A stretch of 46,489 nt of DNA. Source: Candidatus Vogelbacteria bacterium CG10_big_fil_rev_8_21_14_0_10_51_16 (GTDB taxonomy: Bacteria; Patescibacteriota; Minisyncoccia; Phycocordibacterales; JACRKE01). This document shows, piece by piece, positions 3,917-46,489 of this stretch (position 1 is its first letter; each line of letters opens with the position of its first letter). Below the pieces are notes generated by a model. The model worked only from the letters and a program-made list of their open reading frames with translations. It ran no database searches and was not told the origin of the DNA. The DNA is taken from NCBI GenBank assembly GCA_002774795.1, contig PCYI01000001.1, positions 12,116 to 58,604 of the forward strand, given 5' to 3'. A program made the position numbers and the translations under genes.

Positions 3917-3987
3917 CAATCCTCTCCTCTCCTTTCCTTTGTCCTCTCTGTCCTCAATTTACTAGAAGCGTGCTAGGATTGTCAATC

Positions 3988-5424
3988 ATGGAGTTTTCGA
4001 TAGATAAAAAAGCACAAGGCGCTCTTGCTCGAGCCGGTATCTTGACCACTGGCCACGGGGTCATCAATACGCCCGCTTTTGTAACAGTCGGCACCAAGGC
4101 GACCGTGAAAGCCCTCACCCCAGAAGAGGTGGCCTCTCTGGGCGGAGAGGTGGTGCTCGCAAACACCTACCACCTATACCTCCAACCGGGCGACGAGCTT
4201 ATCTGCAAGTCGGGTGGTCTACATAAATTCATGAACTGGTATGGTCCCACCATGACCGACTCCGGCGGGTTCCAGGTATTCTCCCTTGGCGTAGCGCTTG
4301 GATCGGGAATCTCCAAACTCTCCAAGCCCTACGCCACGCAGATTACCGCAAATGTAGAGCGGATAGGCGCGGATAGAACCCCTCCACGCAATACCCTAAA
4401 AATATTCACAAATGAGCCCGCATCCAGTCCGCGTCAGTCGGCGTCTAGTCCGCAAATGTCCGTGGCGCACGATGGGCCAAAGTCCCTAGTGCGCATCGAT
4501 GAGGATGGCGTGACCTTTCGGTCTCACCTCGACGGCTCGAAGCATCTCTTTACGCCGGAGCGCTCGATGGAGATCCAGCACAATATCGGCGCCGATATCA
4601 TCTTTGCGTTCGACGAATGCACCTCCCCCACAGCATCCTATGACTACCAACGCGAAGCGATGGCCCGCACCCACCGTTGGGCAGAGCGCTCGCTCGCTCG
4701 CCACCGCGAGCTTGAAACAAGCGACCCCCTTCCATACACGCAAGCGTTATTCGGCATCGTACAAGGTGGCCGACACCGAGATTTGCGTGAAGAGAGCGCC
4801 CGTTTCATTGGCTCTCTTGCCTTTGACGGCTTCGGCATCGGTGGCTCTTTTGATAAGGCAGACATGGGAGACGCTGTCTCGTGGGTAAACAGACTCTTGC
4901 CTGAAGAAAAACCGAGACACCTTTTAGGTATCGGCGACCCGTGTGACCTTTTTTTGGCAGTCGAGAACGGTTGCGACCTCTTTGACTGTGTGGCCCCCAC
5001 CCGCCAAGCGCGCAATGGCTCTCTCTACACAGCACAAGGCCGCATCAATATCACGAACGCCCGCTATCGCACCGACCTTTCCCCTATCGACCCCACCTGC
5101 ACCTGTAGTGTTTGTACGGGTGGTATGCCCCATCCCCCGGCCGGGGGAGGGCTGGGGTGGGGTAGATCTTATGGTCCTAACCCATACCTTCCTTCGCAAA
5201 CTGCTTCACCAATCGGCATTAGCAAGATGTCCTACACCCGCGCCTACCTCGCCCACCTTTTTCGGGCCGAAGAGCTCCTCGCCTACCGCTTAGCCTCCAT
5301 CCACAACCTCCACTTTATTGTCAATCTGGTGAAAAAAATGCGCGCCTCACTTCTCAATGACACCTTCTTTAAGCTTAAAGAAGAGTTTCTGCAAACATAC
5401 GGCAATTCAACCACAAACCGATAG
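3988..5424 (+). CDS. tgt: Queuine tRNA-ribosyltransferase (tRNA-guanine transglycosylase) carrying two in-frame insertions
   Basis: MEFSIDKK...ARAGILTTGHGVINTPAFVTVGT, TDSGGFQVFSL, FAFDECTS, zinc motif CTCSVC...H, C-terminal IHNLHF. See findings for the insertions. Confidence 0.9.
   Translation: MEFSIDKKAQGALARAGILTTGHGVINTPAFVTVGTKATVKALTPEEVASLGGEVVLANTYHLYLQPGDELICKSGGLHKFMNWYGPTMTDSGGFQVFSLGVALGSGISKLSKPYATQITANVERIGADRTPPRNTLKIFTNEPASSPRQSASSPQMSVAHDGPKSLVRIDEDGVTFRSHLDGSKHLFTPERSMEIQHNIGADIIFAFDECTSPTASYDYQREAMARTHRWAERSLARHRELETSDPLPYTQALFGIVQGGRHRDLREESARFIGSLAFDGFGIGGSFDKADMGDAVSWVNRLLPEEKPRHLLGIGDPCDLFLAVENGCDLFDCVAPTRQARNGSLYTAQGRINITNARYRTDLSPIDPTCTCSVCTGGMPHPPAGGGLGWGRSYGPNPYLPSQTASPIGISKMSYTRAYLAHLFRAEELLAYRLASIHNLHFIVNLVKKMRASLLNDTFFKLKEEFLQTYGNSTTNR
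4404..4464 (+). repeat. Family D element (ATTCACAA head plus four GTCCGNN units spaced 10/11/10 bp) inside the tgt ORF, in frame
   Basis: Units start at 4427, 4437, 4448 and 4458. Alignable to the intergenic copy at 22478-22542; the four-unit array also matches 7346-7384. Confidence 0.65.
5128..5165. repeat. Family A palindrome core (reverse orientation) inside the tgt ORF, in frame
   Basis: CCCCATCCCCCGGCCGGGGGAGGGCTGGGGTGGGGTAG versus the reverse complement of the intergenic core, CCCCTCCCCCTGGCCAGGGGGAGGTTGGGAGGGGGTAG. Confidence 0.7.
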
Positions 5425-6804: not shown

Positions 6805-7225
6805 GGGAATCGTTTCTCCTTTCGGGGCGGGGCTTTTTCGGGGGGGTCTCCCTCAGCGTGCCCCGCCGTTCTTTCTCCGAAATTAGCCAACTCCTCCGTG
6901 CGTTTCTCTGACTCTCTATCCTTCCGACCGTTCGGCCGGTTTTTCTTCTCGCGAAATCCTCCTTTCGAAAAGTGGCGAGAAAGAAAACTAAGGGTTAGAG
7001 AAGACAGAAAACGCTTTGTTGTAGTACTTTTGTGAAAGAGCTATGTGGGCATTGGCCCACATAGCTCATTAGGAGCGAAGTGGGAATGTTTGCCTATCTG
7101 CTATAAACTTACACCTCTGCCATAAATGACGCAAGTCCCTTGCCCGTCTCTGTGGAAAAAATGTGGAAAACGAGTTGACAAACTCATGTAAATCTCCACG
7201 ACCGCACCACACGACCAGTGGTAAT

Positions 7226-7260
7226 CTACCCCCTCCAACTCCCCCTGGCCAGGGGGAGGG
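7226..7260. repeat. Family A palindrome core only (no terminal repeats)
   Basis: CTACCCCCTCCAACTCCCCCTGGCCAGGGGGAGGG. Confidence 0.7.
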
Positions 7261-26186: not shown

Positions 26187-26225
26187 CCTCCCTCTCCTGG
26201 CCAGGAGAGGGTAGGGTGAGGTGGG
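26187..26225. repeat. Family A second palindrome module (CCTCTCCTGGCCAGGAGAGGG plus TAGGGTGAGGTGGG)
   Basis: The same module recurs at 29647-29685 and, diverged, inside 43933-44106. Confidence 0.7.
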
Positions 26226-26256
26226 TCGTAAACCTACACCACCATACTTTCATTAG

Positions 26257-26321
26257 CTTTGAGTTACGAAATGCGCGTTTTTCCCTCCCCTGGCCAGGGG
26301 GAGGGGCTTCGTAATTCACAG
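26257..26321. mobile_element. Short (65 bp) family A MITE flanked by a perfect 7-bp target-site duplication TCATTAG
   Basis: TCATTAG at 26250-26256 and at 26322-26328. Terminal inverted repeats are CTTTGAGTTACGAAAT and CTTCGTAATTCACAG. Confidence 0.8.
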
Positions 26322-26365
26322 TCATTAGACCAAGAGGAGGACATCTCGTAACACACAGCCATTAG

Positions 26366-28646: not shown

Positions 28647-28676
28647 TAAAAAAATGCGGCATTTGTATTCCGCATT
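28647..28676 (-). terminator. Intrinsic terminator downstream of rnc and of the MITE
   Basis: The minus strand reads AATGCGG-aatacaaatg-CCGCATT followed by TTTTTT. Confidence 0.6.
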
Positions 28677-28682
28677 CTCCTA

Positions 28683-28824
28683 CTGTGAGTTACGAAATTG
28701 CCCCTCCCCCTGGCCAGGGGGAGGTTGGGAGGGGGTAGGATGCAGAAATACGGCCCAAAATCTACCCCACCCTAGCCCTCCCCTGGCCAAGGGAGGGAAT
28801 AGGTCCGAATTTCGTAATTCAAAG
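28683..28824. mobile_element. Family A MITE (142 bp) with a 6/7 matching flanking 7-mer (TCTCCTA / TGTCCTA)
   Basis: Terminal repeats are CTGTGAGTTACGAAATT and AATTTCGTAATTCAAAG. There are two internal GC palindromes. Confidence 0.8.
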
Positions 28825-28827
28825 TGT

Positions 28828-28857
28828 CCTACTGCCTACTCACTACTCACTACTGCC
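28828..28857. repeat. Heptamer arm (CCTACTG-type), inverted relative to 28543-28561
   Basis: cctactgcctactcactactcactactgcc abuts the rnc stop region. Confidence 0.7.
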
Positions 28858-29564: not shown

Positions 29565-29646
29565 ACTGTGTGAGCAGTGGACAGGTGGCAGATAGCATGA
29601 ATAATGCTCGCTACCAGCTACTAACTGCGAATGTTAGGATTTTAGT

Positions 29647-29732
29647 CCCCTCTCCTGGCCAGGAGAGGGTTAGGGTGAGGTGGGTTGCGGGAAGCCTACC
29701 CCCTCCCAACCTCCCCCTGGCTAGGGGGAGGA
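29647..29732. repeat. Family A palindrome modules (both cores, no terminal repeats)
   Basis: CCCCTCTCCTGGCCAGGAGAGGGTTAGGGTGAGGTGGG ... CTACCCCCTCCCAACCTCCCCCTGGCTAGGGGGAGG. Confidence 0.7.
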
Positions 29733-29751
29733 GCACTCACGGCAAACCAAT

Positions 29752-43715: not shown

Positions 43716-43867
43716 TAGGACTTACGTAGAATGGCGTCTTTGCGAGGTACTCCGAAGCCTGCCTGCGGTAGGCAGGCAATCCAAAATTTGTGAGGCCTGA
43801 TAATAATCCTGGATTGCTTCGTGTGGGGCGCTCGCGATGACGAAACTGGTTTTTTACATAAGTCCTA
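43716..43867. repeat. About 150-bp branched palindromic element (outer stem TAGGACTTACGTA / TACATAAGTCCTA)
   Basis: Nested pairs CGTCTTTGCGAG / CTCGCGATGACG, plus internal hairpins CCTGCCT-gcggt-AGGCAGG and CAATCCA...TGGATTG. Single copy in the window. Confidence 0.6.
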
Positions 43868-43932
43868 TTGTTAATAGATTTGGTGTGGGGGTATAACGAG
43901 CAAAACTAAAGAGAGCAAACGTCTCTCTAAAT

Positions 43933-44106
43933 CTTTGAGTTACGAAATGTGAGTTTTTCCCTCCCCTGGTCAGGGAAGGAGTTCCTCCCTCTCCTGCCCG
44001 AGGAGAGGGTTGGGGTGGGGTGGGAGGGGTGGGGTAGCTTTAGAGCCATACTACCCCCTCCCAACCTCCCCCTGGCCAGGGGGAGGGGCAATTTCGAAAT
44101 TCACAG
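43933..44106. mobile_element. Full-length (174 bp) family A MITE flanked by a perfect 7-bp target-site duplication TCTAAAT
   Basis: TCTAAAT at 43926-43932 and at 44107-44113. Terminal repeats are CTTTGAGTTACGAAAT and AATTTCGAAATTCACAG. There are three internal GC palindromes. Confidence 0.85.
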
Positions 44107-44107
44107 T

Positions 44108-44824
44108 CTAAATAGAACCTGCGGAAATTATCCGCTCGGCGTAGACTGCCACTCTTTTGCCATATGTCTTTTCGTCTCTAATCCAATCGCCACCACAGGT
44201 GATGAGCACCAGTTCTTCTTTTCCTTCTGTGCGGAAGATGCGAGCGAGAGGGACGGCATCGTGAGAATAGTGAGCGACTTCGCGAACGACGTAAGAAAAA
44301 TCCTCGCCGGCGTAGTTCGTAATTATAATAAAGTCACCAATGGCAAGATCGTCCAGATGGTAAAATACAGCCGGTAATGCAAGACTATTGTCTAAATGGC
44401 CCGCAAATACTACCGTGCCCGGTTCGCCCGGGGCCGCTCCCCCCTTGTACCAAGCGACATCACGATAAATCCGGCGACCGGAGGGCGTGCCCATATCCCC
44501 AGATGCCGTCAGCCCCACTCTTTGCACATTGGTCTCTATTTTCAGAGCTGGAATAGCTAGTCGGACCGGTGTCTCGTCTGCCGGTGGAGGAGGCGGAGGA
44601 GTAGGTGGCGCAGGAATCTTTTTCTCAGCTCGGCTCGCCACATCCTCTCCGCCAGCAATCGCCTCTCGTAAAGTAGCGACGAAACCGGTCCGCGGGAGAG
44701 TGTATGTAGCTGTCTCTGTGATTACGGCCACCGCCCCTGGGTTCGCGTTTAAAACAGAGCGTCCGAAAGCCGCCAATGAAATACCGACAATGAGGAAACC
44801 TGTGGCGAGGAGTATCTTTTTCAT
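44108..44824 (-). CDS. Sortase (class F-like)
   Basis: N-terminal TM. VVFAGHLD (His), LVLITCGG (Cys), RVAVYAERI (Arg). Confidence 0.8.
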   Translation of the reverse strand: MKKILLATGFLIVGISLAAFGRSVLNANPGAVAVITETATYTLPRTGFVATLREAIAGGEDVASRAEKKIPAPPTPPPPPPADETPVRLAIPALKIETNVQRVGLTASGDMGTPSGRRIYRDVAWYKGGAAPGEPGTVVFAGHLDNSLALPAVFYHLDDLAIGDFIIITNYAGEDFSYVVREVAHYSHDAVPLARIFRTEGKEELVLITCGGDWIRDEKTYGKRVAVYAERIISAGSI

Positions 44825-46100: not shown

Positions 46101-46489
46101 AATTCACTATAGTATTTAACTGATAAACTGGTATTATCATCGACCTCAAACTCGGCGCCGTGATACAGTCGAGCTTGCGTAATACTTGTACATGATGACG
46201 AAGCGCAACAGGCATACTTACCGTCACTCACACAGCGAACACATACTCCAGAATGGTCAAAGAAAACATCTCGGCCAACAGATGACACAGTAAAGACCGG
46301 TTTTAATGCCGGTTTATTGAAGAAAACAAAAAAAGTCCGAGATAAGACTGTAGAAAAAGTAAGCACCCTACAGGGCGAGTCCTCTATTTGAAAGACAAAC
46401 AAGGAGACGTGTCGTAAAAACGTCACACAAGCACGAAATCATAAAGCTGGACTCTTCGGAGTTTCTTGGGGTATTAAGTGTGGTTGCTC

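Follow-up and report, generated by a model that had tools for sequence, protein, structure and literature searches.

Non-autonomous transposon-like repeats with modular hairpin interiors in the genome of a Candidatus Vogelbacteria bacterium

Bacteria of the candidate phyla radiation (CPR; Patescibacteria) are usually described as streamlined. Here we analysed a stretch of 46,489 nucleotides (the window) from the genome of Candidatus Vogelbacteria bacterium CG10_big_fil_rev_8_21_14_0_10_51_16 and found that short repeats in it belong to a family that is present about 50–80 times in this ~1-Mb genome. These repeats are very probably non-autonomous DNA transposons (miniature inverted-repeat transposable elements, MITEs) that are mobilised in trans by an IS982-like DDE transposase. 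Their only conserved, functional parts are terminal inverted repeats (TIRs) of 16–18 bp (CTKTGARTTACGAAAY); the family is defined by these TIRs only, and the interiors are variable. Approximately 1% of the genome is made up of this one MITE family, with further repeat layers in addition. As mobile DNA the repeats are of an ordinary kind, but the modularity of their hairpin interiors is unusual. They fragment the assembly, create spurious open reading frames (ORFs) of the PPPNLPLARGRGNF type and mark gene boundaries, and they can be used to study how uncultivated episymbionts exchange DNA horizontally and how hairpin cargo is shuffled between transposon families. The modular, nested interiors are the part that deserves further work.

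Copies and target-site duplications

Contigs of the window's genome (G000) are denoted by C-numbers and other genomes of the same order by G-numbers. A preliminary description of the window had reported three copies with TIRs and 7-bp flanking repeats, and their coordinates were confirmed. A TIR of 14–16 bp is present on all three, and the TIR pattern CTKTGARTTWCGAA has 7 matches in the window compared with 0.08 expected from dinucleotide-preserving shuffles. The seventh match, at 73–86, is the right TIR of a fourth copy that is cut by the window start and is followed at 87–94 by the right copy of an 8-bp duplication (TCTTATTA).

43926–44113, + strand: MITE copy 1, comprising TCTAAAT (43926–43932), a 174-bp element (43933–44106) and TCTAAAT (44107–44113)
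43933–44106, + strand: TIRs of copy 1, left CTTTGAGTTACGAAAT, right (reverse complement) CTGTGAATTTCGAAAT
26250–26328, + strand: MITE copy 2, comprising TCATTAG (26250–26256), a 65-bp element (26257–26321) and TCATTAG (26322–26328)
26187–26358, no strand assigned: degenerate older MITE that hosts copy 2, with a palindrome and G-rich arm (26187–26225) and a remnant TIR (26345–26358)
28676–28831, + strand: MITE copy 3, comprising TCTCCTA (28676–28682), a 142-bp element (28683–28824) and TGTCCTA (28825–28831), with 1 mismatch between the flanking repeats
1–94, + strand: right part of the fourth copy, a full 209-bp MITE at C21:11993-12201

The interior of copy 1 consists of three GC palindromes with G-rich and C-rich arms, and the family profile (nhmmer) matches this copy at C21:56049-56220. 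Its right duplication holds the stop codon (CTA on the + strand, TAG on the − strand) of a class F sortase ORF (44108–44824, − strand). Copy 2 contains a single palindrome (DNA fold of −15.1 kcal/mol, z = −3.9), and the remnant TIR of its host MITE (reverse complement CTGTGTGTTACGAG, minus strand, C21:38473) has 2 mismatches. Copy 3 has a palindrome–arm–loop–arm–palindrome architecture (DNA fold of −37.1 kcal/mol, z = −5.2) and shows 95% identity to C21:4413.

Across the genome (958 kb in 30 contigs, 97.9% complete, 51.5% GC), exact TIR matches number 70 for the 14-mer pattern and 66 for the 16-mer CTKTGARTTACGAAAY. TIR pairing, which tolerated two mismatches, yielded 52 inward-facing pairs of 22–374 bp, with a total length of 8,676 bp (0.9% of the genome). 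The flanks of these other copies, proposed earlier as a check, bear out the pattern seen in the window: 31 of the 52 pairs (60%) abut a direct repeat of at least 6 bp (mostly 7–8 bp; one-base shift allowed), compared with 0.6% in a control that paired left and right flanks of different elements. Without a boundary shift, perfect flanking repeats occur at 18 pairs for 7 bp and at 8 pairs for 8 bp. The duplication length is 7 or 8 bp, rarely 6; the 7 bp first proposed holds for the 18 perfect pairs and is not strict.

At 30% GC, the duplications are AT-rich relative to the genome (51.5% GC). The 18 perfect 7-mers begin with T in 15 cases and end with A in 14. A stop triplet is present on one strand in 22 of 26 duplications, compared with 31% of random 7-mers. 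All 25 perfect-duplication copies examined are intergenic, the few ORF overlaps being spurious read-through ORFs, and in two of them the duplication overlaps the stop codon of the adjoining gene. ORFs across TIR pairs are only palindrome translations, and the elements otherwise have no coding capacity; the earlier statement that ORFs containing PPPNLPLARGRGNF are translations of the element was correct, as PPPNLPLARGRGNF is the direct translation of CCCCCTCCCAACCTCCCCCTGGCCAGGGGGAGGGGCAATTTC.

Insertion with target duplication is shown directly by a paralogous empty site. A hairpin repeat is interrupted by a 132-bp copy (C14:14208-14339) that has TCTCAAGA on either side; five other loci hold the intact repeat, in which TCTCAAGA occurs once (...aacattccaacattctcaagaatgttggaatgtt...). 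This hairpin repeat is itself dispersed and around 34 bp in length (AACATTCCAACATTCTCAAGAATGTTGGAATGTT; C18:19513-19544, C11:4442-4473, C9:99986-100017, C25:51410-51440 and C29:37311-37342). With TIRs, a near-fixed duplication, small, non-coding and dispersed copies, and a cognate autonomous element, the family has the features by which MITEs are recognized.

The autonomous partner and the probable mobilising enzyme

The preliminary description noted that mobilisation would have to be in trans and suggested looking for an autonomous element with these TIRs at its ends. The inference was right: such an element is found in other genera of the order and not in this assembly. In G161, a TIR pair 985 bp apart, with CTTTGAATTACGAAAC at both ends and flanks duplicated as TAATAAA, encloses a single ORF of 266 amino acids. 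The predicted protein matches Pfam DDE_Tnp_1_3 (PF13612) at 86.5 bits (cut-off 27), followed by the generic DDE_Tnp_1 at 66.8 bits, and its best NCBIfam model is transpos_IS982 (103.6 bits, under the curated cut-off of 130), with an E-value of 1e-29 compared with 2e-8 for IS4; IS982 is also far ahead of IS5. Residues D105, D182 and E229 (the triad) and K236, seven residues after the catalytic E229, are invariant in six homologues. Transposase homologues occur in 12 other genomes of the order, and few of the binned genomes contain the transposase. Six full-length partner copies have the same TIR, even when their proteins are only 41–45% identical.

Database searches recovered 2,133 relatives of the transposase at E ≤ 1e-10, many of them on contigs of ~1 kb; those that are named come from Taylorbacteria, Nomurabacteria and the 'Parcubacteria group'. 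Metagenomic homologue loci, mainly from groundwater, are bounded by the same TIRs, 959–995 bp apart, in 74 of 80 cases. Partner elements with these 16-bp TIRs, a DDE transposase, a length of 971–995 bp and duplications of 6–7 bp are represented by G161, G029 and 74 metagenomic loci. In 67 metagenomic copies of this insertion sequence (IS) with enough flank, the base before the IS is A in 64 and the base after it is T in 57, which is the same T-N5-A target signature as that of the MITEs. A model in which the element ends are AC...GT, with a duplication of 5–6 bp, is disfavoured by seven perfect duplications (TCTAAAT, TCATTAG, TTAGTGT, TATCTTT, ACCCATA, AAATAGA and ACGGCGA), each of which matches over all 7 bp although it does not begin with T or does not end with A. 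We therefore kept the 7–8-bp model, in which the flanking base would be part of the target.

The mechanism that we propose would begin with a DDE transposase supplied in trans by an IS982-like IS with the same ends. This enzyme would bind both TIRs and move the element, which would integrate into AT-rich T-N5-A targets at cuts with a stagger of 7 bp, at times 8 and seldom 6, and repair of the stagger would leave the flanking duplication. In this reading the GC-palindrome interiors are cargo; the hairpin core is also carried inside a second MITE family with different ends, and smaller elements have inserted into the core. We infer from sequence both that a transposase of the partner type is the mobilising enzyme and that the reaction chemistry is as described.

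Several observations weigh against this reading. No cognate transposase, not even a remnant, was found in the 97.9%-complete assembly, which was searched with PF01609, PF13612, the partner protein, tblastn of six homologues (best E-value of 0.31) and a hidden Markov model of the six transposases; nor was one found in the other high-copy genomes G101, G189, G002, G385 and G365. DNA of this genome borders none of the 80 metagenomic IS loci, which average 39% GC compared with 51.5% here. Perfect 6–7-bp duplications are present in only 16 of the 67 metagenomic IS copies with enough flank (24%), and many of the copies are on ~1-kb contigs, the two flanks of which may stem from different copies. Insertion polymorphism was not seen: same-strain contigs from other samples carry all three window insertions, which are fixed in these contigs because intergenic lengths are identical at all three sites. 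Pairwise identity among the 142-bp copies reaches 97.9% at most (median 84.5%), and no two copies are identical, which leaves current activity unproven. To our knowledge, no transposition experiment exists for this clade.

An autonomous copy within the window's own genome was considered and rejected, because long-range TIR pairs, 'solo' TIRs and contig ends all proved to be MITEs. Each 'solo' TIR belongs to a MITE whose other TIR has degenerated, and contig ends that read far enough into a TIR show a MITE interior rather than an IS; the end of C20 stops within the TIR. In this genome the family may be an old one that no longer moves; alternatively, the IS may reside on ~1-kb contigs that were discarded by binning, the shortest contig in the assembly being 4.2 kb. 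Activity in this genome is probably old or rare, given that the assembly contains no transposase, no two copies are identical and perfect-duplication copies are all intergenic. The unmatched flanks of the metagenomic IS copies are plausibly joins of different copies in short-contig assemblies, or the result of IS–IS recombination.

The assignment to IS982 can be questioned without affecting the conclusion that the repeats are MITEs. The family has been described as having inverted repeats that begin 5'-AC and an atypical DDE without K or R 6–7 residues after E (Fayad, Kallassy Awad & Mahillon 2020, PMC7335449). The partner, with its transpos_IS982 score below the curated cut-off, its invariant K at E+7 and ends that, by the logic of the duplications, would read CT... 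rather than AC, differs from it in these respects, and partner and MITEs might instead form a separate IS4/IS5-like clade, in which case only the label would change. We consider this quite improbable, as IS982 is by far the best NCBIfam match and DDE_Tnp_1_3, the best-scoring Pfam domain, is passed at 86.5 bits; a length of ~1 kb, a single DDE ORF, TIRs and variable direct repeats also fit the family. If the flanking A (64 of 67 copies) is assigned to the element, its end becomes AC and has T as the ninth base, in agreement with the IS982 family logo.

Hairpin interiors, a second TIR family and nested layers

The three window copies do have interiors built of GC palindromes, as first described, but this is not a property of the family, because the same TIRs enclose unrelated interiors elsewhere. 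In this genome they enclose either the GC-palindrome core (type A) or a type-B hairpin (GTCATTGCGAG...GCAATCCAG). Size classes include 22-bp TIR–TIR fusions in this genome, a minimal element of 55 bp in G256, elements of 65–69 bp (one palindrome), elements of 142 bp (palindrome–arm–loop–arm–palindrome) and a larger class of 230–374 bp. Compared with shuffled controls, the elements fold much more stably (z = −3.9 to −17). In 20 MITEs from 17 other genomes, most of which have 6–7-bp duplications, only the TIRs are held in common and the interiors are unrelated long hairpins. The type-B core (GTCATTGCGAG...GCAATCCAG...CTGGATTGC...CTCGCAATGAC) is also found within same-TIR MITEs of other genera (L057, L058 and L065).

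Further modules in the window are listed below.

29635–29739, + strand: core module without a TIR of either type (palindrome–arm–loop–arm–palindrome; profile positions 17–130)
7221–7260, + strand: half core without a TIR (C-rich arm and palindrome; C21:19336-19375, profile positions 82–123)
43736–43846, + strand: type-B hairpin core without TIRs (GTCTTTGCGAGG...CAATCC...GGATTGCTTCG...CTCGCGATGAC)
43758–43776, inside the type-B core: nested 19-bp mini-palindrome (CCTGCCTGCGGTAGGCAGG)
46451–46471, + strand: left terminus of the second MITE family (TIR-2, ACTCTTCGGAGTTTCTTGGGG; C21:58566), which continues past the window end
5128–5151, + strand: palindrome-like copy (CCCCATCCCCCGGCCGGGGGAGGG) within the tgt ORF (3970–5424)

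The palindrome reported inside tgt is indeed within this ORF, which matches Pfam TGT at 446 bits. Other palindromes had been described as isolated modules without terminal repeats. This holds for 29635–29739 and 7221–7260; the module at 31–86 is part of the cut 209-bp MITE and that at 26187–26225 is part of the older MITE that hosts copy 2. Nor does isolation hold in general. In a profile of the 142-bp class, cores without the first TIR cease aligning at constant positions, and most of these cores genome-wide are bounded by a second TIR (GGTATTCKGRNNTTTCYTGTGG) and by duplications of ~9 bp (for example, ATAATTTCG and AATCTTAA). Six second-TIR pairs were identified (C2:29543-29799, C4:22808-22972, C8:32256-32422, C21:10756-10951, C23:5946-6149 and C27:17321-17500), and two chimeras have one end of each TIR type and no duplication (C2:40404-40671 and C13:20353-20429). 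Together, these observations indicate that the core is common cargo that recombines between two MITE families.

Smaller elements are nested within the cores. Around 30 inserts of 88–117 bp, of two types, all occupy one position (CCAGGG^GAGGG) in the 3' half of the GC palindrome (for example, C30:10828-10922, C20:20895-21010 and C4:38360-38450). They have no TIR, no duplication and no Rfam match, and none is complete in the window. Each has TGAGA, a hairpin and then CGCAAGACC, and the hairpin sequence varies by type while its pairing is kept. A relative is found in another genome (G397; L064), and a look-alike (C20:19584-19834) lies between a 25-nt partial tRNA-Phe (TTTGGTAGAGCATTCGCCTGAAGAG) and an intact tRNA-Phe gene. 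The 19-bp mini-palindrome CCTGCCTGCGGTAGGCAGG is nested at ~22 loci, in type-A palindromes, type-B cores and other sites, with its insertion point after ...AG in the cases compared. With introns allowed, ARAGORN reported 'introns' of 773 nt in a tRNA-Thr, 855 nt in a tRNA-Ala and 210 nt in a tRNA-Thr, which may be artefacts or real insertions.

The genome also contains nine Y1_Tnp (PF01797, IS200/RAYT-like) ORFs of 198–253 amino acids, none of them in the window (C2:19789-20550, C2:37758-38447, C2:2790-3461, C6:3795-4391, C9:7102-7779, C19:10942-11646, C24:6786-7484, C8:15295-15984 and C10:11877-12584). Each lies between copies of its own palindrome or hairpin, which is also dispersed at 1–8 other loci. 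These ORFs with their own hairpins look like several systems of the IS200 type or of the type formed by repetitive extragenic palindromes (REPs) and REP-associated tyrosine transposases (RAYTs), and nested inserts, mini-palindromes and Y1 hairpins fit a REP/RAYT-like or IS200/605-like layer. A direct link of this layer to the family-A palindrome was not found.

Could the repeats as a whole be REP hairpins of this kind, or inverted REP doublets (REPINs), moved as single strands by HUH (Y1, RAYT-like) transposases rather than by a DDE enzyme? The strong hairpins in the MITE interiors would suit such a system, and one Y1-associated hairpin type is found within a TIR-bearing element (C29:9601). 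The likeness to REPINs and RAYTs (Bertels & Rainey 2011, PMC3116915) extends to short, GC-rich palindromes that form inverted doublets and fold as long hairpins, and to the presence of Y1/RAYT-like genes between their own hairpins. However, REPINs and IS200/IS605 elements have no TIRs or target duplication, whereas here 60% of copies have 7–8-bp duplications next to their TIRs; the family-A palindrome or TIR flanks none of the nine Y1 genes, and identical TIRs bound an autonomous element that encodes a DDE transposase. We therefore regard this explanation as very improbable for the TIR-bearing elements, and it survives only for the inner cores and nested inserts. For those, one might imagine that the palindrome core and inner inserts are independent hairpin-targeting modules riding in two DDE-type MITE families and moved by the nine Y1/HUH transposases or by RNA-like target pairing. 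This is a speculative reading that we consider rather unlikely; if true, a ~1-Mb CPR genome would hold a three-layer parasite hierarchy that is maintained without a DDE transposase.

Strong hairpins at gene ends (one on a stop codon) might suggest structured RNAs or terminators encoded by the host, but this reading is hardly tenable, because Rfam gave no match at the gathering threshold in the window and only sub-threshold miRNA-precursor look-alikes, typical of GC hairpins, at ten MITE loci, because the duplications, the paralogous empty site and TIRs common to a transposase-encoding element point to mobility, and because the TIRs are conserved between genomes while interiors are unrelated. 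Some copies may have a secondary use in the host.

Distribution, comparable systems and host genome

Of 401 genomes of the order, 46 contain the 16-mer TIR, and these represent 33 of the 223 genera; a reversed-pattern control in the same scan gave 1 match. Matches are distributed unevenly, with 66 in this genome, 64 in G101, 35 in G189, 31 in G253 and none in G001, which is of the same family as the window's genome.

We found no published work on IS982-type MITEs in CPR bacteria in a literature search. The closest system that we compared is in the Cardinium endosymbiont of Oedothorax gibbosus, in which MITECca01 and MITECca02 derive from ISCca4, of the IS982 family (PMC9769881). As in that case, the elements described here are short and non-coding, have IS982-type inverted repeats, are present in many copies in the small genome of a host-dependent bacterium and are presumably mobilised in trans. 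In Cardinium, however, the parental IS is intact in the same genome, whereas no parental IS is found in our assembly; MITECca01 and MITECca02 keep a short IS-derived subterminal sequence, whereas the interiors here are modular hairpins that are unrelated to the IS. Unlike the Cardinium elements, moreover, the same TIRs serve many unrelated MITE families in more than 30 genera.

Correia elements of Neisseria, and RUP and BOX of Streptococcus, are abundant intergenic, hairpin-forming, MITE-like repeats of small genomes that often lie at gene boundaries; their TIRs, duplication lengths and presumed transposases would differ from those described here. The occurrence of smaller repeats inside larger ones resembles the nested small dispersed repeats of Nostoc, reportedly described by Elhai et al. 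in 2008. A cyanobacterial origin of the window, prompted by the palindromes, was rejected on the basis of only 11 occurrences of HIP1, an unsplit rpoC and a genome length of ~1 Mb. The host has traits of the CPR/Parcubacteria type, including the unsplit rpoC (1,224 amino acids), a short rpoB and the class F sortase, and the genomes of its relatives are 0.5–1.4 Mb in length. The comparison covered two genomes of the same family, none of them of the same genus, and these are alignable with the window's genome inside genes only. MITEs or nested inserts contain or border ten of the 60 contig ends of the assembly, and also contain many of the N-gaps in its scaffolds.

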